Source: Anaerolineae bacterium
GTDB lineage: Bacteria; Chloroflexota; Anaerolineae; UBA7937; B3-Chlor
DNA: 37,351 nucleotides
NCBI GenBank assembly: GCA_035256725.1
Contig: DATEXS010000123.1
Span: forward strand, 1 to 37,351
Direction of reading: 5' to 3'
This document shows, in pieces, positions 8,806 to 32,100 of the stretch. How positions within the stretch are numbered: position 1 is the first letter of the stretch; each line of letters opens with the position of its first letter. The position numbers were made by a program, and so were the translations under genes. The notes beneath the pieces are model-generated. The model saw only the letters and a program-made list of their open reading frames with translations, made no database searches and was not told the origin of the DNA.

Positions 8806-10554
8806 ATGGAAGAAAAGACCTTGTTCGCCCGTAAGGCGACCGGACTGGTGCGAGAGATCGGCTTCTCGACGGCGATCATCCTGGCCGTCTGCAACGCAGT
8901 GGGCTTGGGATGGCAGAAGCGGGTCTTCCAGGCCATCGGCGCCGAGAGCGTGTACCCCCAGGAGTATGTCCTGGGCATTCACCCCATGGTCATGGCCTTT
9001 CTCCTGATCGGGATCTTGATGTTGGTCTCGATCTACGCCTTCGCTGTGTTGTCGTCAGCGATGCCCCGTTCCGGAGGAGGCTATGTCTTCATGTCGAGGA
9101 TCATCAACCCCGGCTTCGCCTTCGTGGCGACCTGCCTGGAGTTCCTCTCCGTGGCCATTTCCTACGGCCTGATCGCGGTCGCCACCTTTGAAGCCACGTT
9201 GATCTTCGGCAGCCTGGCCGGCGTCGATACCAGCGGGCTGGCGAATCCCTACTTCATGAGCATCTTCGGGATTGTGATCATCGCCTTCTTCAGCGGCATC
9301 GCCTGCCTGGGCACCCGGATGACGGGGTATGTGCTGCACGTGATGTTCTGGATCCCCGCAGGCATCCTTGCCGTGGTGTACCTGGTCTTCATCGTGGCCA
9401 ACCCTCCGGCCATGGAGGCTGGAGTGGGAGCCATTACCGCGGGACACACGGCCGCTGAGTACACGCAGGCGGCTATCGACCAAGGCCTGACGTCTGGCAT
9501 CTACTGGAGCGCCGTGTTCGCGGCCAGCTTCTACGCCTACTGGGCGTATATCGGCTACGCCGCTGCCACCTTTGTGGCTGGTGAAGTGAAGGAAGCCAGC
9601 CGCAGCTTGCCCAAGATCATCTTTATCTCGGGGATCGTGATCATGGGCATCTACATGTCCATCTCCTTCCTGTTGGCTCGGGCGGGTGGTATGGCCGGCG
9701 TGGTGGATGTAGGGGGAGGCAAGACGTGGAGCCTGATAGACGCCGTGGGTTACTTGGGGCCCGGCGCGGGCAGCTTCGAAGATGCAGGCTTGCCCACCAT
9801 TGGGGCCTGGATGCCGTACTTCGCCGGCATCTCGGCCTACGGCGTCTTTGGTGCCGGTATGGGCAAGCTCTTCGGCATCTTGATGTTTGTGATGGGCACC
9901 ATGTGGGTTGCCAACGACATCCCGCCGTTCATCCTGACTTGCTCCCGCATGCTCTTCGCTATGGGCTTCGACCGCATTCTGCCGGAGTGGGTCGCCGATA
10001 TCAATGAGAAGCGGGCCTCACCGGTGAACGCCATCATCGTCACTTCGGTGGCGGCGTTGGTCGGCGTGGTAGCGGAGGCGGAGTTGTTCGGGGATGCTGG
10101 CCTGGCCTTCCTGAAGCCCATTCTGCACAGCCCCTTTGGGCAAGGGTGGATCAGCTCGTCCGGCGCCATCGTGGCCACCGACCTGTGGGATGCCCTGTTC
10201 TTCGGCGGCATGGGTCTGGCCTGCGCCTGGTTCCCGTCGAAACTTCCAGAGGTCTTCGAGCGGGCTCCATGGCGGCAGAGCAGGGGCCTGGTTGTAGGCA
10301 TGGGATATGCGGCCTTTGCCACTAACGTCTTGCTGTCGTTGTTGATCCTGTGCCACGGTGCCGGCTATGGCTGGGGCCCCTCGTTCTCTCTCGGTCCTTT
10401 GGGGCACTTCGGGGGCAACTGGCTCAGCCTGAACTTCTGGTTCACGGTCGTGCTGATCGTTGTCTCCGCGCTCGTGTACTACTGGGGTCGCAGCCGGGCA
10501 AAGCGCGTGGGCGCGGACTTGACCACCATTTTCGCCCAGATTCCACCGGAATAG
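8806..10554 (+). CDS. APC superfamily amino acid/polyamine permease
   Basis: 582-aa polytopic membrane protein with APC-like N-terminal and mid-protein motifs (AMPRSGGGYVF, GYAAATFVAGEVKEASRSLPK). AGGAGG lies 8 nt upstream of the ATG. Confidence 0.85.
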   Translation: MEEKTLFARKATGLVREIGFSTAIILAVCNAVGLGWQKRVFQAIGAESVYPQEYVLGIHPMVMAFLLIGILMLVSIYAFAVLSSAMPRSGGGYVFMSRIINPGFAFVATCLEFLSVAISYGLIAVATFEATLIFGSLAGVDTSGLANPYFMSIFGIVIIAFFSGIACLGTRMTGYVLHVMFWIPAGILAVVYLVFIVANPPAMEAGVGAITAGHTAAEYTQAAIDQGLTSGIYWSAVFAASFYAYWAYIGYAAATFVAGEVKEASRSLPKIIFISGIVIMGIYMSISFLLARAGGMAGVVDVGGGKTWSLIDAVGYLGPGAGSFEDAGLPTIGAWMPYFAGISAYGVFGAGMGKLFGILMFVMGTMWVANDIPPFILTCSRMLFAMGFDRILPEWVADINEKRASPVNAIIVTSVAALVGVVAEAELFGDAGLAFLKPILHSPFGQGWISSSGAIVATDLWDALFFGGMGLACAWFPSKLPEVFERAPWRQSRGLVVGMGYAAFATNVLLSLLILCHGAGYGWGPSFSLGPLGHFGGNWLSLNFWFTVVLIVVSALVYYWGRSRAKRVGADLTTIFAQIPPE

Positions 10555-10581: not shown

Positions 10582-10626
10582 AGGCTCTCCGTCGGGCCAT
10601 GTGGGCTCGCGGAGAGCCTTTTTCTT
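10582..10626 (+). terminator. intrinsic terminator of the permease gene
   Basis: 10-bp perfect stem AGGCTCTCCG/CGGAGAGCCT followed by TTTTTCTT. Confidence 0.8.
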
Positions 10627-10699: not shown

Positions 10700-10870
10700 G
10701 ATGGGCCAGGTGGCGGCACAAGAGCTGTGCATCTGAAGGGGGAAGAGTTCGCGTTGGTCTGGCTGTTCATCCCCCACGGCGGGTACTTCCCCAGGAAGGC
10801 GAGGTCGATGGCGGAAGACCACGCTGGCGGAGCGGCCGGTGCGGTCCTTGTCGATTTGACCTCCCCTTGA
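10700..10870 (+). pseudogene. 3' fragment of a paralogue of the 11120-11596 gene
   Basis: GTRAVHLKGEEFALVWLFIPHGGYFPRKARSMAEDHAGGAAGAVLVDLTSP aligns ungapped with TTISRFLKEEEYAWAWLVIPHEGSFSSKARLMVERNDSREIGIALVDLSSQ, with 24 of 51 positions identical by hand. The N-terminal two thirds are missing, and the upstream frame runs into the permease terminator. Confidence 0.45.
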
Positions 10871-11040
10871 ACAACCACAGCCTCTGCATACTGAAGATGG
10901 AAGATGACCAGGCTGGGCTAGCTCCTCAAGTGCACACCAGTGCAGCTTTGTGCAGCCCATGGACTAAGCTAGGTCTTTCGTCGGGCTCTTCATAGTCACC
11001 TTTCGTGGCTGGCTCGGTGATGACGGGCAGGCCAGTCAGT

Positions 11041-11119: not shown

Positions 11120-11596
11120 ATGAAGGTCAACGAATACCTGGTTAAACTGGAAGATAGCCTCATGGTCGGAAGCGGTAGGTGGCTGGCCGACTTCAACGAA
11201 TCCTTCTGGGAATATCAACTGGGGGACTTCGTCTTCGACATGTTTGTCACAGCGAAGGTGAGACCCAAGGGCTTCTTCCTTTCCAGGGTAGCGTCGTGGC
11301 TGCTGATGCCTAACTACTACGTCGTTTGCCTGGCCTATTCCAAAGACCACGAGGTGAGACAGTTGCATGACTTGTTGACCACAATCTCCAGGTTCCTGAA
11401 AGAGGAGGAGTACGCCTGGGCTTGGTTGGTTATCCCCCACGAGGGCTCTTTCTCCAGCAAGGCCAGGTTGATGGTGGAGAGGAACGATAGTCGAGAGATT
11501 GGCATAGCCCTGGTTGATCTCAGTTCCCAGGAGATAGTCCACGCCTCGTCATACTGGGGCCAGAGGATGCCCAGGTTCATCAGGTGCTTCAAGTGA
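11120..11596 (+). CDS. hypothetical soluble protein (158 aa)
   Basis: First in-frame ATG after the predicted TSS. No family recognised. Its C-terminal 50 aa are duplicated in the 10700-10870 fragment. Confidence 0.55.
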   Translation: MKVNEYLVKLEDSLMVGSGRWLADFNESFWEYQLGDFVFDMFVTAKVRPKGFFLSRVASWLLMPNYYVVCLAYSKDHEVRQLHDLLTTISRFLKEEEYAWAWLVIPHEGSFSSKARLMVERNDSREIGIALVDLSSQEIVHASSYWGQRMPRFIRCFK

Positions 11597-11619
11597 GAAC
11601 GGTCGCACCGCTGCAGGTA

Positions 11620-12051
11620 ATGAACCTCACCATGTCTTTGATCGCCTTTTTTCTCCTTACTTCATTCGCCTGGTTCGCGGCCGGTTTTGTTGTTTTCAGG
11701 GAGATCGTGATCTCGCGGCCGGTTTTCGGCATCAACATAGCCCTGACTGGCCTGCTGGGATGGTGGTGGTACAGGGCTCAATATCACGCCGTCTTTTCCT
11801 GGGATCAGCAGGGTTTCGAGTTGACTAAGGGTAGGGGGCGCAAGAGCATAAGGAAGTGGCAGGATTTCTCACAAGTATCCCTGGTTCATGAGGGATATGG
11901 CAGGTTCCTGGTGAGGCTCTACGGGGACGGTGGGGAGTACTTGGATATCCCGGCTTCGGCCTTGAAGTTGCCCCCCTCCGACTTCCGTTTCGAGGTGCTG
12001 GACTTGGTGAAGAGGGAGCAGCCGGCGGACGGGGTGGACGAACCCGCATAA
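11620..12051 (+). CDS. small membrane protein: two N-terminal TM helices plus a beta-rich C-terminal domain (bacterial PH-like?)
   Basis: Hydrophobic segments LIAFFLLTSFAWFAAGFVVF and FGINIALTGLLGWWWY are followed by about 85 residues with alternating-pattern strands. The start is uncertain (GTG 11584, ATG 11620 or 11632). Confidence 0.5.
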   Translation: MNLTMSLIAFFLLTSFAWFAAGFVVFREIVISRPVFGINIALTGLLGWWWYRAQYHAVFSWDQQGFELTKGRGRKSIRKWQDFSQVSLVHEGYGRFLVRLYGDGGEYLDIPASALKLPPSDFRFEVLDLVKREQPADGVDEPA

Positions 12052-12064
12052 GGAGGAGGAAAAG

Positions 12065-12844
12065 GTGGCCACAACAGACGAGATCTCAACACGAGCGGTG
12101 ACCATGGAAGAAGAAGTGCGGCGCGTAATCGATGCTGGACGGGACAGGGGCATACATCTGAGGGTGATCGGAGGCACGGCAGTGAAGTTACACTGTCCCA
12201 GTGCCGCACATCGCTCCATGGCTCGGATCTATGGTGACATTGACATGGTGGGCTACCGCAAGCAGCGGCTCGAGGTGGCCCGCCTGATCGAAGATCTGGG
12301 GTACCAGCCCAACCGGCGCTTCAATGCGCTGCAGGGACACCGTCGCTTGCTCTTCGACAACGCCACGCTGGGCTACGATCTTGATGTCTTCCTCGATGTC
12401 TTCGTCATGTGCCACCAGTTGAGCCTGGTCGGCCGACTGGAGCTGGACGATTATTCGGTGCCCATTGAGGAGTTGCTGCTGTCCAAGCTGCAGGTGGTCT
12501 TGCTCAATGAAAAAGATGTCAAAGACGGTTACGCGCTGCTCTTCGATCACGACATCGCGGAGGGTGAAGACCGAGAGACCATAGACCCGAGGTTCATCGC
12601 CAAGCTGTGCGGCGATGACTGGGGGTGGTACAAAACCCTGACCTTGAACATCGACAAACTCTTGGCCCTGGCTGACGACTACCTGGAAGAAAAGGAGAAG
12701 GGAGTTTGCGTGGAGCGACTCCACCGGCTGCGGCAGGTGATCGAGGAAGCCCCGAAATCGATGAAGTGGAAGTTGAGGGCCAAGGTCGGCGAAAAGAAGC
12801 GCTGGTATGAGTTGCCCGAAGACGTGGTGACTCACCAGTACTAG
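12065..12844 (+). CDS. uncharacterised nucleotidyltransferase-fold protein (paralogue 1)
   Basis: The GTG start is preceded by AAGGAGGAGGA. LRVIGGTAVKLHC...YGDIDMVGY and a later DLDVFLD fit the Pol-beta-type hG[GS]...DxD plus third-carboxylate pattern. It is clearly homologous to the 14854-15750 product. Confidence 0.65.
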   Translation: MATTDEISTRAVTMEEEVRRVIDAGRDRGIHLRVIGGTAVKLHCPSAAHRSMARIYGDIDMVGYRKQRLEVARLIEDLGYQPNRRFNALQGHRRLLFDNATLGYDLDVFLDVFVMCHQLSLVGRLELDDYSVPIEELLLSKLQVVLLNEKDVKDGYALLFDHDIAEGEDRETIDPRFIAKLCGDDWGWYKTLTLNIDKLLALADDYLEEKEKGVCVERLHRLRQVIEEAPKSMKWKLRAKVGEKKRWYELPEDVVTHQY

Positions 12845-12890: not shown

Positions 12891-12920
12891 CAGCACCCCG
12901 CCCCCAAGGGCGGGGTGCTG
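12891..12920. terminator. GC-rich hairpin between convergent genes (possible bidirectional terminator)
   Basis: 13-bp perfect stem CAGCACCCCGCCC/GGGCGGGGTGCTG with loop CCAA. There is no clear U-tract on either side. Confidence 0.55.
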
Positions 12921-12951: not shown

Positions 12952-13905
12952 TTAGGCATCAACTCTACGCAGCTGCGTCAGTTTGGGACCGTCGATCTCC
13001 ACCAGGAAACCTTTCAAGATCCCCTCGCCATACTCGCTGCCTGGATTGAGGCACTCTGTGCGGCCGATTTTCACCCGCCCCGGACTCTCATGGATGTGGC
13101 CGTGCAAGCCCATCATCGGCTGGTATTTCTCTATGATTTTGCGAACGGCTGTGGAGCCTACGGCCACGGATTGGGTATGGCCGCCTGCGGTTACCAGACT
13201 CAGGTCTTCATGAAGCAGCGGTGCCTCGTCAATGAAGCTTTTATAGGGTGGCGCATGGATGCAGAACGCGGCGGTTTCTAAGTTCTTAACTTGAGCAACC
13301 ACCCGTTCCAGTTTCTGCTCCATCTCCTCCTCGCAACACTCCCGAGGGGAGTCGAACGGAGTGGGATTTGACCAACCGAAGCACAGAACCTCATGTTCAT
13401 CATCCAGCTGCACAACCTCTTCCTCCCCAAAGAGTACCTGAGGATTAGGGTCGGCCCTGATGACTTGATCAATAGAGAACTTGTCATCGTTGCCTGGGCT
13501 GATGATCACCTTGCAAGTGGGGGGGACGCGGTCCGGGATGAGGGTCAGCCAATACCTGATGACCTCACATTCCATCCTCTCGAAGACGTCTTCCTTGTAT
13601 TGCATATCTGTGAAGAGCCGCTCCACTTCTTCAGGGGTGGTGCGGTAGGGGATGTAGCAGATCATGCGGCATTTCTTCTCGAACTCGGGGACTTCTTCCT
13701 CGGTCAGCACCTCGGGTTGGCCGTAGAAGGTGGCGTCATACCTACCATCAGGCCGCTTGACGATGGGGACCAGCAGCTTTCCGGTCATGTCACCGCTGAT
13801 GACCAAGGCGTCAAGATCGAAGTACTTCGCGGAGTTGAGGAACTTGCGCCAGACCGTCTCTGAGCCGTGAAAATCGGTGGAAAAGAGAAACTTGGTCTTG
13901 GCCAT
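12952..13905 (-). CDS. calcineurin-like metallophosphoesterase
   Basis: Motifs in the canonical order: FSTDFHG, ISGDMTG, SPGNDD, IHAPP, GLHGHIHES. Confidence 0.85.
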   Translation of the reverse strand: MAKTKFLFSTDFHGSETVWRKFLNSAKYFDLDALVISGDMTGKLLVPIVKRPDGRYDATFYGQPEVLTEEEVPEFEKKCRMICYIPYRTTPEEVERLFTDMQYKEDVFERMECEVIRYWLTLIPDRVPPTCKVIISPGNDDKFSIDQVIRADPNPQVLFGEEEVVQLDDEHEVLCFGWSNPTPFDSPRECCEEEMEQKLERVVAQVKNLETAAFCIHAPPYKSFIDEAPLLHEDLSLVTAGGHTQSVAVGSTAVRKIIEKYQPMMGLHGHIHESPGRVKIGRTECLNPGSEYGEGILKGFLVEIDGPKLTQLRRVDA

Positions 13906-13979
13906 TGACTTGTCGTCCTTTCCGTTGTCATGAGTGCCGGCATGACGCGTGGCGACGCCGGCCGGGGCTGCCTACGGGA

Positions 13980-14007
13980 TTGACTACAGTAAGAACTATT
14001 ATACCAT
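13980..14007 (+). promoter_or_regulatory. possible promoter for the USP gene
   Basis: TTGACT, a 16-nt spacer, then TACCAT. The -10 is weak and overlaps the -10 of the opposing phosphoesterase promoter. Confidence 0.3.
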
Positions 14008-14026
14008 GATGGATACAGATTGCCAA
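13998..14026 (-). promoter_or_regulatory. sigma70-type promoter for the metallophosphoesterase
   Basis: The minus strand reads TTGGCA, a 17-nt spacer, then TATAAT, with TGG extended -10. Confidence 0.55.
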
Positions 14027-14068
14027 ACAGCAGACCTACACATGGTGAGACAAGCCGGAGGTGTTGAG

Positions 14069-14500
14069 ATGTATGATCGCATACTGGTCCCCCTGGATGG
14101 ATCTGACCTGGCCAGGGCCATCATCCCACGGGTGCAAACCATGGCCAGCGCCCATGGGTCCGAGGTGATCTTGCTCGAGGTTTTGCCCCAGTCGGGGGTG
14201 TTGCCCAAGACAGCGGCCAAGGAGAGACGGGAGGCGGAGGAGCACCTGATGGCTGTGGAGCAGGAACTCCTCGATGCCGGGGTGAATGCCCGTCACACGA
14301 TCAGGCACGGCTCGGATCCGGCCGCAGAGATCGTGGACTACGCCGAAGTCAACGATGTTGATCTGATCGCTATGTCCACCCACGGGCGCAGCGGCGTCAG
14401 CCGTTGGGTGTTCGGCAGTGTGGCGTCCAAGGTGCTGAGGGGCACCAGCAAGCCGATTCTCCTGGTCCGGGCACCCGGGGCCACCGTAACACAGGGCTAG
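14069..14500 (+). CDS. universal stress protein (single USP domain)
   Basis: MYDRILVPLDGS start with GGAGGTG upstream. C-terminal DLIAMSTHGRSGVSRWVFGSVASKVLRGTSKPILLV is the USP ATP-binding-type motif. The listed 13949 start is an upstream extension. Confidence 0.85.
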   Translation: MYDRILVPLDGSDLARAIIPRVQTMASAHGSEVILLEVLPQSGVLPKTAAKERREAEEHLMAVEQELLDAGVNARHTIRHGSDPAAEIVDYAEVNDVDLIAMSTHGRSGVSRWVFGSVASKVLRGTSKPILLVRAPGATVTQG

Positions 14501-14853: not shown

Positions 14854-15750
14854 CTATTTGCCTCTCTCTTCGGGCATCATGCGCCAGATACCGAAGTCAC
14901 CCACGGTGTCTTCAGTCTCAACAGGCTCGTACCACCTCTTTCTAGGTCCTATCTTGGAGCGCGCCTTCCAGCCCGTGCTCTTGGGCTCCGCCTCGATGCG
15001 GGAGAGCAGCGCGTCGATCCTCTCCTGTACAACTTGAGCCTCTTCTGCCGACAAGGCCTCCATTCGTGGAAGGAGATCCCGGATCCCCTTAAGGTTGGTG
15101 GTTAGGGTATACCAGAAACCCCAGTCTTTGGCCAGCAGGTCCGCGATATATGCGCAGTTGATCGCGTCCTCCTTATCCTGCTCGGCCAGTTCGTGGGCAT
15201 AGAGCAGCAATAGGCTGTCTTTGAAGTCCTTCTCGCTGAAGTGCACGATTTGCAGCTTTTCCAGGAGAAGATCGGTGGGGTCTAACGTGAGGGGGTCGAG
15301 CTCCAATCGCCCGCGGAAATCCAGGCGATGATTGGCCACCCGAAGCTGGTCGAAGAATACGTCCACGAAGAACCACCCGTGCTCGTGGAAGTAGATCTGC
15401 CTCTCGCTGGCTGCGGAAGAGAGGGTTGCCCGTCTTTTCTGATACCCCATGGTCGCAAACAAGTCAGGCATGCGCTTGCGGAACTCCTTGTAGCTGACGA
15501 AATCCAGGTCGGTGAACTCCGCATCACCCGTGCCAAGCCTGACCAGCCTGAGGCCCAACTCTTCGCACTCCAGAGTATGGAGCCTTATGCCAACCCCGCC
15601 CATGACTCGCAGGAGAAGTCCCTCTTCCGCGCCTCTCTCCACGATTGTGCGTGCCTCTGTGAGGAATACCTCTGAGGGCACCACGCCGCCCCACTCCTGG
15701 GGCATGCGTATCTCCCTGGCGTCCTCCTCTATCCGTTGTAGCCATACCAT
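14854..15750 (-). CDS. uncharacterised nucleotidyltransferase-fold protein (paralogue 2)
   Basis: Blocks are shared with the 12065-12844 product: LRVMGGVGIRLHT / LRVIGGTAVKLHC; DLDFVSY / DIDMVGY; GRLELDPLTLDPTDLLLEKLQIV / GRLELDDYSVPIEELLLSKLQVV; KDWGFWYTLT / DDWGWYKTLT; KRWYEP / KRWYEL. Confidence 0.65.
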   Translation of the reverse strand: MVWLQRIEEDAREIRMPQEWGGVVPSEVFLTEARTIVERGAEEGLLLRVMGGVGIRLHTLECEELGLRLVRLGTGDAEFTDLDFVSYKEFRKRMPDLFATMGYQKRRATLSSAASERQIYFHEHGWFFVDVFFDQLRVANHRLDFRGRLELDPLTLDPTDLLLEKLQIVHFSEKDFKDSLLLLYAHELAEQDKEDAINCAYIADLLAKDWGFWYTLTTNLKGIRDLLPRMEALSAEEAQVVQERIDALLSRIEAEPKSTGWKARSKIGPRKRWYEPVETEDTVGDFGIWRMMPEERGK

Positions 15751-15787: not shown

Positions 15788-16639
15788 CTACAGGATATAG
15801 ACCAGTCCCAGCCCCAGAATAGACACAACAATGAACTCGACAATGACAGTTGGCGCCAGGCGGCCGCGCAGGTGCTGCCTGGCCAGTCCGCTCATCACAT
15901 AGAAGACCAGCAGGAAAAACACCCCACTTCCCACCTCGCCCAGGCTCAAATGATTGAGGGCCCAGGCCACCTCTCCCAGCACAAGCCCGACGATCACAGA
16001 GTAGAGCCAGGTGCGTTTCACCGCGGAAGCAGGTGTGCGGGGGCGCAATAGTTCGGCAGCCAATCCCGACCCTAGCAGGAAGACCGCCGTCGCCGACAAG
16101 AGGCTGCGCGCGCGTGCTTCGTAGATTAGGGTACAGAAGACGAACACACTTGCGTAGACAGCCAAGCTTAGACCCCACCCAGCCATGTCATCCCCAGGTC
16201 CCTCAGGGTCGACAGTGCGATACTGGGCGATCACTGTCAACGAGAGGAGCAGTCCTGTCATAGCCAGGCCACCCAACCAGAATGATAGACTAGGCGACGA
16301 CGGCAGGGCGATGAAGGCAAAGAGGACAAGGGCGCAGGGCAAGGCCCAGAGGGTAAGGCCGTATGCCCAGCCGGCATCGCGTGCCAGAGGGTGCGACCGC
16401 ACAATGGAATCCGCGCCCGCACCCGTCATCGCGACCAGGAGTGCGCCGACGAACCACCGGCCGGAGAGATAGATGGTAGTGGGCACTCCCAGGGCCACGA
16501 AAGAGACGGTCCTTGTCGGCAACTCGACCACATGGGAGACCATCAGCCCGAAGAGAACCAGACTGACCAGAATGCTTAGCCTGTCGTAGCGAGGCATCAA
16601 TGCGGTACCTTGCGCATGGCCGATGGGTGGAAGCAACAA
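15788..16639 (-). CDS. polytopic integral membrane protein, family not recognised
   Basis: About 8 hydrophobic segments. It lies 38 nt upstream of paralogue 2 on the same strand. The start could be TTG 16639 or the internal MPRYDRL ATG about 42 nt downstream. Confidence 0.6.
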   Translation of the reverse strand: MLLPPIGHAQGTALMPRYDRLSILVSLVLFGLMVSHVVELPTRTVSFVALGVPTTIYLSGRWFVGALLVAMTGAGADSIVRSHPLARDAGWAYGLTLWALPCALVLFAFIALPSSPSLSFWLGGLAMTGLLLSLTVIAQYRTVDPEGPGDDMAGWGLSLAVYASVFVFCTLIYEARARSLLSATAVFLLGSGLAAELLRPRTPASAVKRTWLYSVIVGLVLGEVAWALNHLSLGEVGSGVFFLLVFYVMSGLARQHLRGRLAPTVIVEFIVVSILGLGLVYIL

Positions 16640-16744: not shown

Positions 16745-17497
16745 GTGGCTTACCTGTACGGTGTTTTGGGGCTGGCGGTTGGAGCCCTCCTGAATCTAGC
16801 CGCCGATTTTCTTCCCCAGCGCCGCCCTCTCCTGACCCAGCCTTCCAGTCCACGACGCGACAGCGGTTGGTCGTGGAGGGACTCCGCGGCTCTGGTCGGC
16901 CTGCTGGCAGGGAGGGGACAGCGCCCGCCAGGCGGTGCCGCGTTGCCCTTGCGTCGGCCGGTACTAGCGGTGGTGACGGCAGTCTCCTTCGCCTTTTTCT
17001 GGCTGAGGTATGGTCCGTCCGTCCAGCTACTACTGGTAAGCCTTTACGCCTGCGCCCTCTTTCTGATCTTCGTCATCGATCTGGAACATCGTCTGATTCT
17101 CCGGGTCGTGGTCTGTCCAGCCATTGGGCTGGCCCTGGTGGGCAGTCACTTCTATCCTGGATTGGGGCTTCGACGCGCTGTCATCGGCGGCGTCCTGGCC
17201 TTCCTCTTCTTCTATCTGGTGGCTGTCCTGGGCCGGCTCATCTTCCGGAGAACGGCTATGGGTGGAGGTGACGCCAACCTGGCGGCGTACGTGGGGCTGA
17301 TCACCGGGTTTCCTGAGATTATCCTCGCCTTGCTGATCACTGTTTGCCTGGGCGGCTTGGTGTCGTTGGCGCTCGTGGTTGGCGGATTCAAGGGGCTGCG
17401 AAGCTACATCCCGTACGGGATATTCCTGGCCACTGGGGGCTTGATCGTGCTCGTGTTCGGCAGGGAGATCATAGGCTGGTATTTTGGCCTGTACTAG
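16745..17497 (+). CDS. A24 family prepilin peptidase
   Basis: FVIDLEHRLI (first Asp box) and GGGDANLAAYVGLITG (GxGDxK-like second Asp box) in a polytopic protein. GTG 16745 follows AGGGGG by 6 nt and lies after the predicted TSS. The listed 16703 start lies inside the promoter. Confidence 0.75.
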   Translation: MAYLYGVLGLAVGALLNLAADFLPQRRPLLTQPSSPRRDSGWSWRDSAALVGLLAGRGQRPPGGAALPLRRPVLAVVTAVSFAFFWLRYGPSVQLLLVSLYACALFLIFVIDLEHRLILRVVVCPAIGLALVGSHFYPGLGLRRAVIGGVLAFLFFYLVAVLGRLIFRRTAMGGGDANLAAYVGLITGFPEIILALLITVCLGGLVSLALVVGGFKGLRSYIPYGIFLATGGLIVLVFGREIIGWYFGLY

Positions 17498-17607
17498 GGG
17501 GCGCAGGCTCTCCACAGTTGACGGCCGACGTCACGCCCGGCCCCACGATGGCTGGGACGGACCTGCATGCGGTGTCAGTTCATACACGAAGCGAGAGGTA
17601 TATCCTG

Positions 17608-18297
17608 ATGCGAACAACTGCTGACCAGGAGATGCTGCTGCGGGGAGGCAGGGCGGGCCAACTGGCGACCTTCATCAGCCTGGTGATGGTATTCGCTGGC
17701 CTAATCGTCTCCTTCACTCAGTACAGGGTGGCGACCTTCCTTTTGATAGGGCTGGGTGTAGTGATGTACACGGTTGGTAGCCGCAGTCAAGAGCAGGCCG
17801 CGAGAGAGCCCTGGCTGATCAAACAGCTGACGGACGCCCTGGCGGAGTTCGACGATAGATACCATCTCTACAGCCACGCGCTGCCCGCAGAACACGTGCT
17901 TCTCACCCCTCACGGTGTCTTTGCGCTCATCGTCAGGGGGATGGATGGCAAGATTCGCTGTTTCAAAGACAAGTGGGTGCGGGCACTGACCTTGCGGCGG
18001 GCACTTCGCTTCTTCACTGAGGAGTCCCTGGGCAACCCCACCAAGGAGGTGCAGCGGGACGTGGAGAAGCTGGCCGAGTACATCCAGGCGCGTGCTCCAG
18101 GGGCCCAGGTGGATGTGCAGGGTGTGGTCGTGTTCGCTAACCCGGCCGCGCAGCTAGAGATAACATCGGCGTCTTTTCCCGTCTTGCCTTTGACGAGGTT
18201 GAAGAGCCACATCCGCAAGGCGTCGGGGCGGATGGAGATGGCGCCGGAGACGCTGAGGACGTTGACCGACCTCTTCGGGGAACGGCCTCCACGCTAG
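17608..18297 (+). CDS. NERD domain protein with N-terminal membrane anchor
   Basis: ATG 17608 is preceded by GAGAGG. Two hydrophobic segments are followed by YHLYSHALPAEHVLLTPHGVFALIVRGMDGKI, which resembles the NERD core. The listed 17344 start overlaps the upstream gene. Confidence 0.65.
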   Translation: MRTTADQEMLLRGGRAGQLATFISLVMVFAGLIVSFTQYRVATFLLIGLGVVMYTVGSRSQEQAAREPWLIKQLTDALAEFDDRYHLYSHALPAEHVLLTPHGVFALIVRGMDGKIRCFKDKWVRALTLRRALRFFTEESLGNPTKEVQRDVEKLAEYIQARAPGAQVDVQGVVVFANPAAQLEITSASFPVLPLTRLKSHIRKASGRMEMAPETLRTLTDLFGERPPR

Positions 18298-26185: not shown

Positions 26186-29100
26186 CTAACCCATCTCGAC
26201 CTGAACTTCGTGGGCCTTGCCGTCGCCCAGCAGGGGGATTTCCAGGCCAGGCAAGACGTCTCCGTCGAGCATCACGTTTTTCACTCCCTGGTTCACTCCC
26301 TGAGGATTCCGCACTGAGATTCGATATAGCGTCCCCCCATCCCTGTAGTTGATTCTGTAGCCTGGCCAGTCTCTCGGAATGCAGGGAGAGATCTGGAAGG
26401 ACGCGCCACTGCGCTGAAGCCCCAAAATCGCCTCCAGGCCGACTCTGTACATCCAGCTTGCGGAGCCGGTGTACCAGGTCCAGCCGCCATGGCCCTTGTG
26501 GGGAGCCACACTGTACACGTCTGCCGCGACCACATAAGGCTCGACCATGTAGCGAGCGACCTGCTCGGGGCTGGCAGCATGGTGGATCGGATTGAGCATC
26601 TCGAAGAGTCTTTGGGCACGGTCCCCCTGGCCCAGCTTGGCAAAGGCCCAAATCGCCCACAGGGCGCCGTGCGTGTACTGACCTCCGTTTTCGCGGACCC
26701 CTGGGGGATAGCCTCTTATGTAGCCCGGATCGTCCAGTGTCCTGTCGAAGGGCGGAGCGAAGAGCGTCATCAACTGGCTCTCGCTATCTACGAGGCGGGC
26801 GGCGACCGCCTCCATTGCCTGGCGGGCACGAGCGGGTTGGGCCCCGCCGGACAGGACGGCCCAGGCCTGGGCGATTGCGCTGATCTGGTACTCGGCGGCT
26901 TGGGACGTCCCTAGCGGCGTCCCATCGTCGTAATAGGCGCGCAGGTACCAATCTCCGTCCCATCCGCTGGTCTCCAAGGCCTGGCTCAACTGCTGTGCCT
27001 GGCTCAGGTAGGCGGAGGCGCGTCTCTCGTCGCCTGCCCGCCGGCAAAGGGGAGCAAAGGCTGTCAAGGTGGCGTACAGAAACCAGCCGAGCCAGATGCT
27101 CTCCCCCCGACCGGCAATGCCTACCCGATTCAGCCCGTCATCCCAGTCCCCGGTGCCGATGAGCGGCAGCCCATGGCGGCCAGCAGTTGTTCCCTTTAGC
27201 AGGGCGCGATGGCAATGCTCGTAGAGCGTGTGGGCTGTGTCGGTACTCTCGTAGCTACCATATCTTTCCTGCTCCCCCGGCTCCAGGGGCTCGCCGTCGA
27301 GAAAAGGCAGCCTCTCCTCCAGGATAGCGATGTCTCCGGTTGTGGTTACGTAGTGTGCGGTGACGAAAGGAAGCCAGAGCAGATTATCTGAGATCCGCGT
27401 GCGAACGCCTTTCCCCGACGGCGGGTGCCACCAGTGCAGTACATCGCCGGCCTCGAACTGACGGCGGGCTGCCTCCAAGATATGGGCGCGAGCCAGCTCC
27501 GGCGCGGCAAGCACCAGGGCCATCACGTTCTGCAACTGGTCCCGAAACCCGAAGGCGCCGCTCGACTGGTAGAGCGCGGAACGCGCCCACAAGTGACACG
27601 ACAGGGTTTGGTAAAGCAGCCAGCGATTCAGGAGCACGTTCATGGCCAGATCGGGCGTCTCCACGGTGACTGTGCCCAGCAGGTCGTCCCAGAAGCGGTG
27701 GGTAGCCTCCCAGGCGGCTTCCACCTCCGTCGGGTCCCGATAGCGCTTGGCCAGGCGGACGGCATCGGCGTGATCGCCGCCTTGCCCGAGCAGGAAGAAG
27801 ATGTCCTTGGCCTGGCCAGGGGCCAGGTCGATGTGCAGTTGAAGGGCTGCACAAGGATCGAGGCCGGCTTGTATAGCGCTGGCCAGCCCAACCCTGCCGA
27901 GGGCCTCCGGCCGGCTCAAGGTTCCCTGGCACCCCAGGAATTCCGCGCGGTCGGCGGTCAGGCCGTGCGGTGACTGGTTGGCCGCCACAAAGGCAACACG
28001 GCTTCCATACGGTTCGTTGTACGGGTTGCGGGCCAGAAGGGCCTGGCTCTCTTCGTCGTACTCTGGGATGATGTACTGGTGGGTTACTTCGTGGAATGTG
28101 CCGAGTACCCATTCGGCGTAGAAAGTCGCGGTGAGCCTGCGGTTCCGTTTCCAAAGGTTCTCCAGCCGCAAATGCGCTATCTTCACCGGTGCCTCCGGGG
28201 CCACAAAGAGGCGCAGGCGCTGTTGCAGGCCATGGCTGCGATGCTCAAAGACGGAATAGCCAGCCCCGTGCCGGATCAGGTAAGGCGACGGCGCACCAGC
28301 CGGCAGAGGAGTGGGCGACCACATGAGCCCCGTCTCCTCGTCCCGTAGATACAGCGCCTCGCCTGGGACATCGCCCACAGGATCGTTGCGCCACGGAGTA
28401 AGTCGGTTCTCACCGCTATTCTCTGACCAAGTGAAGCCACTGCCTGCTTCGGAGACCAGGAATCCAAAACTGGGATTGGCGACCACATTGACCCAGGGGG
28501 TCGGGGTCATTTGTGATGGTTCGAGATAGATGACGTATTCACGCCCGTCGGCCGTGAAGCCGCCCAGGCCATTGTCGAAGAGGAGGCCGGTGGGCCGGGG
28601 CAGCGGTGAAGTGGCCTCCACGTCCTCGGGTTTGGGCAGGGTCGGGAAAAGCGGCGGCAGACGCGAAGGCTTGGTGGGCACCTCCTTGAGTTGCTGAGAC
28701 AACGAGCCCTTCTCGCCGTCTAGGGTCACTCGAGCCGCAGTCTCTATTAGCACCAAATCCTGTTGGCTCATCTGCTCAGCAAAGAGGATAAAGATCCCAC
28801 CACGCTGGTTCAGGGAGCTGTCCTGACCCAGGGTGGTGATTAGCGAGCGTAACTGCCCGTGCAGTGGTTGGTCGTAACCCGAGTCTTTCTGGTTCAAGAT
28901 CACTAGATCTATGTCGATCTGCTGCCTGCGCCAGTAGGCATGAGCCCGGAGCACTTCTCGGACCAGAGCCAGCCCACCCTCGCTCTCCAGGCGCAGGAGC
29001 AAGATGGGATGGTCGCCGGAGATCGCGTAGGGCCACAGGGCAGTCTGACCTTTGGTGTTAGCCGCGAGGAGCGCCGGGTCGGCGCGCAAAGCAGCGTGAG

Positions 29101-32100
29101 GGTACAAGAGGGCGGAGAGCAACTGTTCGAAGCGTTCCAGGTGTTCTGGCATCAAGTCCAAATGGCGTAGCTCCTGTTCGCTCTGAGATTGAGCCTGGTC
29201 GAAGGCCAACTCGAGGCGTGACCAATCCTGGTAGCGCTCGATCAGGGCTATCGCGTCCTCTCGGGACCTCGCGGCCAAGGTGAGATAGGCGACCTCACCC
29301 CTGCCGTACTCGGCCAGCTCCATCTCCAGCCCTAGGGAGAATATGGGATCCAAGGTCGCACCAGTGGTGCCCGAAGGCGCGTACTCGCTCTGAGGAGGGA
29401 CTACGGCATCGCGCGGGGTCCGGCCTCTTCCCAGGAAGCGGCGGCGATCGCTCTCGTGAGTGGTAGCGGTGGTCTGTCCCGTTCTCGCTAGCGCCACATG
29501 GGCGAGGTAGATGGACTCTTCTTGGGGTGAACGCTGGCGGCGGCGAAACAGCAACGCATTCAAGTCTGGAAGGTACTCGCTCTCGATGAAGAGCTTGTTG
29601 AAGGCCGGATGGCCGCGGTCCTCCGCTTGCGGGGCCAATACTGGCTCGCCGTAGCTGGTGATGGCCAAGCGGCGGCGGCGGGCGCTGTGGTTGAACAGGG
29701 TGATGCGGCGTATCTCGACATCGTCACCAGGAGGGACGGTGATGTCCATCTCCGTGGCGATGTTACTATCCCGGCGCCGAAACTCGGCTCTGTGCGTGTA
29801 GAAAACGACCTCCTCATCCCGGGCCGGGGAACCGAGGGGTTGGCGGGTTGCCGACCAGAAGGCGCCACTATCCCTGTCCTGTATATACACCCACGTCCCC
29901 CACCCGTCTAGCGTTGCGTCGGCAGCCCAACGGGTCAGATCCAGGTCTTGCCAACGGCTGTAGCCGCTGCCAGTGCTCGAGAGGAGCACACGGTAGCGTC
30001 CATTGGAGATCAGATGCACCCGTGGTACTGGTCCACCGATTGGCGGCGACCATGGCCTGCTGGTGATCCGGTGTTCAACCTGCCGAACAGGTCGGATTGC
30101 CGGTGTAAGGAGGGATTCGCTGGGCTCCTGGCTGGGGATCTTCTCCTCCAGCAATAGCTCGACGCTCTGAATGCGCTGGTCGGCGTGGAACCGACGGATC
30201 ATCTCATCGCTATGCAGGTAGTTGGCCATGGCCAGCAGGCTCATGCCGTGGTGATGAGCGTAGTAGGAGCGGACGATAGCGCTGTTCTGGCCCTCGGGCA
30301 GTCTGGAGGGGGTGAAATCGATGGCTTCGTAGAACCCATAGAGACCGACCATCCCTAGCTTGGCGAATCGGGAGAGATTCCTTATCACCTCCCGGGGCTC
30401 CCGGGTGAGGGCGAGTAAGGAAGCGTAGGGTGCAATGACCAGATCTGCATCGAGACCACGCCTCAGCCCAAGCCCAGGCACACCGAACGGCCCGTACTGG
30501 TAGGCCATGTTCGCGTTCAGTGCATGGTAGGCAGACTCCGAGATGCCCCAGGGGACGCCTTTCTCCTTGCCATACGCTATCTGGCGAAGGATGGCTCCGT
30601 AGGCACTCTGCTGCAGAAAAGTACCGTCGTGGCTGCGCATCAGGAGCGCTGGCATGAGGTATTCGAACATGCTGCCGCCCCAGGAGAGCAGCACTTGCGC
30701 TCCATTGACCAGGGCGTAGGGGCGGGCAAGCTGAACCCAGTGGCTCTGGGGGATGTCGCCTTTGGCGATCGCTACCAGGCTGGCTATGCGCGCTTCGGAC
30801 GCAAGGAGATCATAGTAGTTGGGATCTGGTCTTCCTGCCGTGACATTGTATCCGATGCGCAACAGCCTGCGCTGCGGATGGTACAGGAAACCAAACTGCA
30901 TGGCCTGGAAGTAGACCTCTGCCTGCGAGCTTAGCTTGTCATAATCATCGAGCAGGTCCCTCGCAGCCTGCTGTGCGGAATCGAGGTGGGTCGCGAGCTG
31001 ATCGCACCACCCGTGGGCCTCTGTCAACGCGTCAGATGTGCCAACACCTCGGGCCAGCAATTCCTGGAGCTGGGAGAGTCGCCCGCGGGCTGCCTCACAC
31101 ACCTGGGGTATCTGATCAAGGCGCGGATTTCTGATCAGGCTGCGTTCCAAGGCCTGCCAGGCGCGGGCGGTCTCCGATTCGGTCCCGGAGTGCTCTAACA
31201 GGGCTGGTGCGTGTTCAAGAGCAGACAGCCAGGGCAGCAGCAGGTCGAGGTCGCGTCGAGCGTCGAGGAGGTAGTGGCGCGCGCGATGCACCCAGGTGCG
31301 CAGCCTGCGCCAGGCCTCGACATCCTGAGGCTCCGGTCCAGCCTCCAGCGCCTCTTGGAGCTGGCGTTCGAGGTCTGGCCACTCCTCGCTGTCTATCTTG
31401 GCTAGCAGAGCTGGCCAGCTCTCCGGCGCATTCTTGGCGGCCAGTATTTGGCGAAGGATGTGATCCAGTCGGTCGCGGCACTGGGCCATGGCTGGGGCGC
31501 AGGGGGCTCCCGCTATGCTTTCCAAGCTATCGCCCAGAGCGGCCAAGGCGTCGCGCAGGCCCTCCCAGCGGTTCCAACGCAGGAAGGGAAGCCGAACTAT
31601 GGACAACAGCCCCTGGCTGAGAGCGATGAGGCAGGCAGCCAGGTTCCCGCTATCCACGGTGGAAACGTAACGCGGGGAGAGCGGGCCAAGTGTGTGCGTG
31701 TCATACCAGTTGAGAAAATGGCCCCTGTGGCGAGGCAGTTTGGCCATGCTCTCAAACGCGTAGCCCAGCCGTCGGGCGAGATTCGTCGCGCCGACGTAGC
31801 CCAGGTCATAGGCCGCCAGAGTGGACAGCAGCATTAGGCCCAGGTTTGTAGGCGAGGTCCGGTGGGCCACCAGTCCGCGGGGGTCTTCCTGGAAGTGGTC
31901 CGGCGGCAGCCAGTTGTCATCTGGCCCCACAAATACCTCGAAGTAGTGCCAGGTGAGGAGCGCCAAGCGGCGCAAATCTTGGCGCTGATGGGCGGAAAGC
32001 GGGTGCTCTACCCGCACGATCGGGTGACTAGTCCACTGTGCGATTGCTGGGGACGCGAGCCACGCGATCACCAGCGGAGCGGCCACGACAAGGGCCGTGG

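Follow-up and report, generated by a model that had tools for sequence, protein, structure and literature searches.

A conserved, probably housekeeping gene module combines an APC permease with a membrane-anchored PH-like protein, Pol-beta-fold nucleotidyltransferases and a metallophosphoesterase in Anaerolineae

The stretch of DNA analyzed here (hereinafter the window) comprises the 37,351 nucleotides (nt) at positions 1 to 37,351 of contig DATEXS010000123.1 from an Anaerolineae bacterium (assembly GCA_035256725.1). At 11120-12844 it carries three closely packed forward-strand genes, coding for a soluble protein (ORF1, for open reading frame 1), a small protein with two transmembrane (TM) helices and a PH-like domain (2TM-PH), and a nucleotidyltransferase (NTase) of the Pol-beta superfamily (NT1). 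An earlier inspection of the bare letters (hereinafter the sequence-only reading) had likened the last two to signal-generator and membrane-effector pairs. Their linkage is confirmed below, but that two-gene view overlooked three constant partners, namely ORF1, an APC permease and a metallophosphoesterase (MPE): the conserved unit extends beyond the pair and unites ORF1 and 2TM-PH with the permease, MPE and either one or two NTases. In the window, these are as follows (lengths in amino acids, aa):

8806..10554, forward strand: APC-superfamily permease, 582 aa (Pfam AA_permease_2, E 2e-20)
11120..11596, forward strand: ORF1, 158 aa, soluble, equivalent to the N-terminal half of fusions in distant relatives
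11593..12051, forward strand: 2TM-PH, 152 aa counted from GTG 11593 (homologue lengths, AlphaFold2, Foldseek, hydropathy)
12065..12844, forward strand: NT1, Pol-beta NTase with a C-terminal helical domain, 259 aa (motifs, AlphaFold2, Foldseek, and a tree placing it in clade I)
12952..13905, reverse strand: MPE, 317 aa (weak Pfam Metallophos match, metal-binding motifs)
14854..15750, reverse strand: NT2, an NTase paralogue of clade II, 36% identical to NT1

Since 23 of 41 related genomes retain ORF1, 2TM-PH and NT1, these are genuine genes rather than chance reading frames. The 2TM-PH gene ends at TAA 12049-12051, as the sequence-only reading had it; the ATG at 11620 that it took as the start is probably to be replaced by the GTG at 11593, since the homologues are 152-155 aa long. 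This GTG overlaps the ORF1 stop (GTGA), and a 1-nt coordinate overlap between the end of ORF1 and the start of the 2TM gene recurs in at least 11 related loci; such start-on-stop overlaps are a usual sign of translational coupling. Further downstream, exactly 13 nt (GGAGGAGGAAAAG) lie between the TAA and the GTG of NT1 at 12065, the spacing previously noted, and the strong ribosome-binding site attributed to the NTase gene is likewise present, with AAGGAGGAGGA spanning the stop of the 2TM gene.

Searches of Pfam, NCBIfam and PDB sequences gave no match for ORF1, and by hydropathy ORF1, NT1 and MPE are all devoid of TM or signal-like segments. An exhaustive search of 1.84 billion proteins with a 2TM-PH profile recovered a tiny family of only 75 representative clusters, about nine of which are proteins of ~300 aa with ORF1 as their N-terminal half (P0289, P0296, P0297, P0304, P0307, P0311, P0312, P0314 and P0317). 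The loci coding for these fusions carry the same module context of permease, NTase and MPE. Thus, because the two genes overlap start-on-stop and fuse in distant relatives, ORF1 and 2TM-PH are to be seen as two halves of one membrane-anchored functional unit.

The architecture proposed for 2TM-PH, i.e., two TM helices followed by a small beta-rich domain, is recovered in its AlphaFold2 model, which is of moderate confidence (predicted local distance difference test score, pLDDT, 67) and shows two helices (residues 6-35 and 38-64), then six strands between 66 and 120, and finally a C-terminal helix (128-141). Of the two TM helices, the first is strongly hydrophobic, while the second is weaker (Kyte-Doolittle ~1.2) and contains an invariant Asn. 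The top Foldseek matches in the PDB are all PH domains (E 0.01-0.1; template-modeling score of ~0.5 on the target), which together with the hydropathy supports a PH-like fold behind a TM hairpin at this level of model confidence. The comparison with bacterial PH (bPH) domains and Cap15-like barrels that the sequence-only reading called for thus favors a PH-like fold: the bPH structure 3dcx is among the matches, whereas the Foldseek search of the PDB returned no Cap15-like barrel. The distribution of Lys and Arg is compatible with an N-in/C-in hairpin and a cytoplasmic PH-like domain. On account of this hairpin, its positive-inside charges and the position of the soluble ORF1 part N-terminal to it in the fusions, the ORF1 part would face the cytoplasm, as would the PH-like domain, which has invariant His, Arg and Ser residues.

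No recognized nucleotide-sensing domain of the Cap15-barrel, SAVED or STING type was found in 2TM-PH, with Foldseek returning PH domains only and PADLOC giving no model. With the YdbS/YdbT-type bPH_2 proteins (PF03703) it shares the succession of two TM helices and a PH-like domain. It differs from them in that 28 members of its family gave no bPH Pfam match (E<=5), and in being a family of those few clusters confined to the permease/NTase/MPE module; a bPH_2 search of the genome found four other genes (contigs C148, C196 and C408) and not 2TM-PH. The misgiving that 2TM-PH might be an ordinary YdbS/YdbT-type protein occurring without NTase partners is thereby allayed. Scans of every member of the family alignments produced only noise (SLATT_1 in 1 of 28, E 0.036; NA-iREase1 in 1 of 27, E 0.012).

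NT1 yields a confident AlphaFold2 model (pLDDT 89.7), in which a Pol-beta NTase core is followed by a helical C-terminal domain. In agreement with the fold, it displays the hG[GS] motif, the DxD motif and the third carboxylate on a beta strand that define this superfamily, with G36, G37, D58, D60 and D107 being invariant in 32 NTase homologues, NT2 included. Its best sequence-family match is NTP_transf_5 (PF14907), which it approaches to within 1 bit of the cut-off (30.2 vs 31.2 bits) and over the N-terminal NTase core only; NT2 scores 13.7 bits against the same model, and many NT1 homologues of 60-99% identity bear a precomputed PF14907 label. Beyond this near-threshold match, Pfam, NCBIfam and PADLOC gave nothing significant for ORF1, 2TM-PH or NT1, and none of the three matched any PADLOC model. 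The Foldseek PDB matches of NT1 are all weak (E 2e-3 to 4e-2, 12-18% identity) and include MenT1, the MenAT1 complex, LnuA, JHP933, ANT(2'')-Ia and CCA enzymes. Although many structures of cGAS/DncV-like NTases (CD-NTases) exist in the PDB, none is among the top 50 matches, and no SMODS or CD-NTase Pfam model matches NT1 at E<=1. Hence, the impression that NT1 is unlike cGAS and DncV was correct, with neither Pfam, PADLOC nor Foldseek giving a CD-NTase signature. The NTase family as a whole is acidic, with a median isoelectric point (pI) of 6.1.

MPE matches Pfam Metallophos at E 8e-4, just under the cut-off, and has the complete motif set of the calcineurin-like phosphoesterases (DxH, GD, GNH(D/E)-type, H and GHxH): the metal-binding residues D11/H13, G38/D39, G138-N139-D140-D141, H217 and G269-H270-x-H272 are invariant in nine diverse homologues. 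A partial match to the PADLOC candidate model PDC-S10 (E 1.7e-7) was examined as a sign of a defense gene and rejected as generic metallophosphoesterase similarity. The permease, with its many hydrophobic segments, is a clear APC-superfamily member (AA_permease_2, 73.5 bits against a cut-off of 27). Neither single-sequence PDB searches with MPE and the permease nor profile searches run from the 2TM-PH, NTase, ORF1 and MPE alignments against PDB sequences found anything credible. With their catalytic residues intact, both the NTase and MPE look active, and their predicted chemistries would be opposed, the one forming and the other hydrolyzing a nucleotidyl phosphodiester.

The coherence of the module is evident from 34 unique loci. 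In all 34, ORF1 and 2TM-PH are adjacent or, in nine, a single polypeptide; in 32 each, the permease precedes them on the same strand, an NTase can be found no more than 5 kb away and MPE no more than 4 kb away, and every miss in these counts is a contig end. The permease is always of one particular APC subfamily, placed directly upstream of ORF1/2TM-PH. The same partners are kept down to 26-30% identity in the fusion contigs and in loci of other families of the class. This bears out the linkage of the membrane-protein and NTase families, across several rearrangements, and disposes of the concern that none would be found. In 17 of the 32 loci with an NTase, it sits elsewhere in the module rather than behind 2TM-PH, and at least five gene orders occur:

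Order 1 (this window): permease > ORF1 > 2TM-PH > NT, with MPE on the opposite strand
Order 2: permease > ORF1 > 2TM-PH, with MPE and NT together on the opposite strand
Order 3 (L040): all five genes co-directional
Order 4: permease > NT2 > ORF1 > 2TM-PH > NT1 > Usp, with MPE on the opposite strand
Order 5: NT and MPE divergent from permease > ... > fusion

Across the 41 related genomes, the permease subfamily, ORF1, 2TM-PH and MPE share one presence/absence pattern; ORF1, 2TM-PH and NT1 are single-copy, and their identity falls with taxonomic distance. The whole block, reading selA, permease, ORF1, 2TM-PH, NT1, MPE (opposite strand), the universal stress protein gene usp, NT2, a DUF5656 gene and an A24 peptidase gene, is syntenic in 12 relatives. 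In the class at large, ORF1 and 2TM-PH are present in only 21 of 401 genomes, and always next to each other. Single copy, synteny from selA to the A24 peptidase across the order and identity that tracks taxonomy mark this as a vertically inherited core-genome block and not a defense island; the patchy, island-like and mobile distribution typical of CBASS (cyclic-oligonucleotide-based antiphage signaling systems) was not observed. One genome of the same order (G024, 98% complete) lacks the permease, ORF1, 2TM-PH, MPE and all NTase paralogues together, and one of the same genus (G008) retains an NT2-like gene alone; the module is thus dispensable and disappears as a set.

A tree of 97 NTases resolves two clades with support of 1.0. 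Clade I unites NT1, the further paralogue NT3 and the MPE-adjacent NTases of Actinomycetes, Alicyclobacillus and Thermomicrobium, while clade II comprises NT2, the NTases next to MPE in Bathyarchaeia and Chloroflexia, and the sole NTase of modules without NT1. The NTases directly behind 2TM-PH form one subclade; thus, the juxtaposition of 2TM-PH and NT1 arose once and was then inherited, and the independently replicated association is at the level of the module. The paralogues also pair with other membrane or signaling proteins, NT2 with DUF5656 and NT3 with a Roadblock cluster. NT3 (L025:5512-6714; contig C68 of genome G000) is a protein of 400 aa, ~46-48% identical to NT1 and sister to the NT1 subclade, with a Roadblock-like N-terminal extension. 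Its cluster includes three Roadblock/LC7 proteins and a DUF4388 protein and, by eye, a small MglA-type GTPase-like reading frame and a GAF-containing histidine-kinase-like one. A relationship between ORF1 and the Roadblock-like N-terminus of NT3 was considered and rejected (hhalign probability 0.3%).

A wider search, anchored on MPE in collections with one genome per species, found at least 587 MPE-related loci. Their labels, which are the titles of metagenome-assembled genome records, name Bathyarchaeia, Nitrososphaeria, Thermoplasmata, Asgard archaea, Actinomycetes, Chloroflexia, Thermomicrobium, Alicyclobacillus and others. When NTase and permease profiles were applied to the best 80 of these loci, most had a family NTase and an APC permease alongside; in the 41 of these 80 flanked by 3 kb or more on either side, the NTase was within 5 kb in 30, the permease in 32, both in 23 and neither in two. 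ORF1/2TM-PH is present in 13 of the best 80 (labeled Anaerolineae, Bathyarchaeia, Hodarchaeota and, once, Actinomycetes), always with the close permease subfamily, and absent from the other 67. Thus, the permease, NTase and MPE form a triad that, without ORF1/2TM-PH, is widespread in Bacteria and Archaea. The flanks of the triad have an amine/amino-acid flavor (more APC permeases, SDR, arginase family, GntR, glutamine-synthetase type, amidohydrolases), and no constant extra partner emerged from them, the most frequent, SDR, accounting for five of 107 flanking genes. The complete module, with ORF1 and 2TM-PH separate or fused, also occurs in loci labeled Bathyarchaeia/Bathyarchaeota and Hodarchaeota (L044-L050, L052, L054 and L118). 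The MPE of these contigs is 45-59% identical to that of the window, as compared to ~40% for most bacterial phyla, which suggests either transfer between Anaerolineae and archaea or mis-binning.

Several further features surround the module in the window:

10603..10619, forward strand: terminator-like hairpin and T run 3' of the permease gene (consensus scan, pattern match only)
10730..10915, forward strand: tandem copy, now decayed, of ORF1's C-terminal third (45% identity, two in-frame TGA)
12891..12920, no strand assigned: 13-bp G+C hairpin where the NT1 and MPE genes converge (from the sequence; in both minimum-free-energy and centroid folds)
13949..14500, forward strand: universal stress protein (Usp) between MPE and NT2 (Pfam Usp, E 4e-30)
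15788..16639, reverse strand: DUF5656 multi-pass membrane protein, co-oriented with NT2 and upstream of it (Pfam DUF5656, E 5e-44)

A search of the genomes aligns the decayed copy with ORF1 residues 92-153, and intact tandem duplicates of ORF1 are found in the relatives G012, G014 and G015. The hairpin at 12891..12920 is likely a two-way terminator of NT1 and MPE, a function that we infer only, as it has no T run. In three loci (L021, L022 and L043) the genes follow each other co-directionally as DUF5656 > NT > MPE, so that usp was probably inserted later between NT2 and MPE; usp is present in loci of this taxonomic order and absent from most other modules. Elsewhere in the window, the gene at 17344-18297 (forward strand), after the A24 prepilin peptidase gene, keeps its position in relatives, and its product has a weak NCBIfam match to a defense-associated kinase model (E 0.0027) and no PADLOC match; 26186-34753 (reverse strand) is a single 2855-aa open reading frame.

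These observations make it likely that we are dealing with a transporter-associated housekeeping module rather than with defense. Within this frame, we lean, by a narrow measure, toward the NTase and MPE acting as a pair at the transporter, with ORF1/2TM-PH as an accessory. The NTase would transfer a nucleotidyl group to a target, which may be a protein of the module or a transported amine/amino-acid-like substrate; MPE would hydrolyze the resulting phosphodiester, creating a write/erase or make/break cycle at the transporter; and ORF1/2TM-PH would be the membrane-anchored adaptor or sensor, either holding this chemistry at the permease or reporting on it. That the cycle is specifically a regulatory one of writing and erasing is a tentative suggestion. 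More speculative still is its boldest form, an undescribed nucleotide-based control circuit for an APC transporter common to Bacteria and Archaea, in which the NTase writes a mark or makes a signal, MPE erases it, and the PH-like domain with ORF1 reads it or presents the target.

Two comparisons may guide thinking on such a mechanism. Established writer/eraser pairs, such as GlnE, GlnD and MntA-HepT, offer a possible parallel in that a Pol-beta NTase is co-encoded here with a hydrolase capable of cleaving phosphodiesters and a putative target; however, no homology of the module to them was seen beyond the NTase fold, and we know of no precedent for an MPE acting as a de-nucleotidylylase. The layout of 2TM-PH in turn resembles that of EROS/CYBC1, the eukaryotic chaperone of NOX2 and thus the partner of a polytopic membrane protein, with the two TM helices and PH domain aligning over 153 columns (8kei_D, template-modeling score of 0.39). 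EROS is eukaryotic and shows no sequence similarity to 2TM-PH, making this an analogy only.

Several observations weigh against a transporter-centered NTase/MPE cycle. The terminator-like site and a 565-bp gap lie between the permease gene and ORF1, such that in this genome nothing implies that the permease is co-transcribed. The model of 2TM-PH reaches a pLDDT of only 67, and its second helix is weakly hydrophobic. Linkage within the order is largely shared ancestry, with the placement of NT1 behind 2TM-PH being one event. To our knowledge, none of the five families has been assigned a biochemical function, and literature searches on PF14907, DUF5656 and the combination of genes turned up no more than a single passing mention. 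Finally, the SDR, arginase-family, amidohydrolase and glutamine-synthetase-type neighbors of the triad would suit a metabolic role equally well.

Such a metabolic role is the strongest of the competing explanations and has a real, if lesser, chance of being right. Here, the permease would import an amine/amino-acid-like compound, the NTase would nucleotidylylate it and MPE would process the phosphodiester, whether for uptake and conversion or for detoxification, leaving ORF1/2TM-PH as a transporter accessory. The small-molecule nucleotidyltransferases LnuA and ANT(2'')-Ia among the structural neighbors of NT1 point this way, as do the acidity of the NTase family, which suits small-molecule over RNA substrates, and the arginase-family, SDR, amidohydrolase, glutamine-synthetase-type, HAD and cyclase/formamidase neighbors of the triad. 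Yet, a pathway of this kind has no constant extra enzyme to show for itself; an NTase followed by a phosphodiesterase on one small molecule amounts to a futile cycle unless the steps are separated; and three NTase paralogues per genome with non-metabolic partners are hard to accommodate.

It is less likely that the gene arrangement is a frozen accident, with no specific tie between 2TM-PH and NT1, ORF1/2TM-PH serving the permease only and the NTase serving MPE only. The monophyly of the NT1 genes behind 2TM-PH, which reduces that arrangement to one event, is what such an accident would leave, and so are the 67 of the best 80 MPE loci without ORF1/2TM-PH and the fact that ORF1/2TM-PH tracks the permease subfamily most tightly of all. 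However, on contigs long enough to tell, ORF1/2TM-PH is never apart from the NTase and MPE, and this holds across the rearrangements and across both Anaerolineae and Bathyarchaeia labels.

A role akin to that of the MenT and AbiEii (DUF1814) enzymes is improbable. The NTase would then slow translation under stress control by modifying tRNA 3' ends, a modification to be reversed or trimmed by MPE, with the permease and Usp providing the link to nutrient stress. MenT1, the MenAT1 complex and JHP933 are indeed the best Foldseek matches of NT1 (E ~2e-3), a usp gene lies next door, and an NT1 helix carries a motif, K..(8)..KDxxD, that resembles motif III of DUF1814. MenT/AbiEii, JHP933, LnuA and ANT(2'')-Ia are the nearest solved folds, all sharing a minimal NTase with a helical C-terminal domain, but the likeness is at the level of the fold only: the structural matches are weak (template-modeling scores of 0.35-0.55, root-mean-square deviations of 9-10 A) and no AbiEii Pfam match was found. 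Moreover, the locus offers neither a toxin-antitoxin nor a resistance context, the neighbors being ORF1, 2TM-PH, MPE and the permease with no antitoxin-like partner among them, and the acidity of the NTase family, its core-genome conservation and its three paralogues are likewise at odds with this role.

Least probable by far, and largely refuted, is the analogy with cyclic-nucleotide defense from which the sequence-only reading set out, wherein the NTase of a CBASS-like abortive-infection system makes a nucleotide signal that 2TM-PH binds in order to damage the membrane: while a Pol-beta-superfamily NTase is tightly spaced from a small protein whose N-terminal TM helices precede a beta-rich domain, as in CBASS with 2TM effectors such as Cap15, and while the invariant His/Arg/Ser of the PH-like domain could bind a phosphorylated ligand and the nearby MPE could degrade the signal, the likeness is superficial, as the NTase is no CD-NTase by Pfam or Foldseek, the beta domain has a PH fold and not that of a Cap15 barrel, PADLOC matches none of the three genes, and the locus is a single-copy, syntenic, vertically descended core block with the permease, ORF1 and MPE as constant partners, in which the NTase often lies elsewhere.

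The removal of this false lead, by which the locus ceases to be a candidate for a new CBASS-like defense system, leaves a module in which four of the five components, i.e., ORF1, 2TM-PH, this NTase family and this MPE subfamily, are without an assigned function. The fusion of ORF1 to 2TM-PH and the reshuffled gene orders predict that its parts are physically and functionally coupled. Should the NTase and MPE reversibly modify the transporter system, this would represent a new mode of transporter regulation; should they instead act on the transported substrate, the module would define a new uptake pathway.

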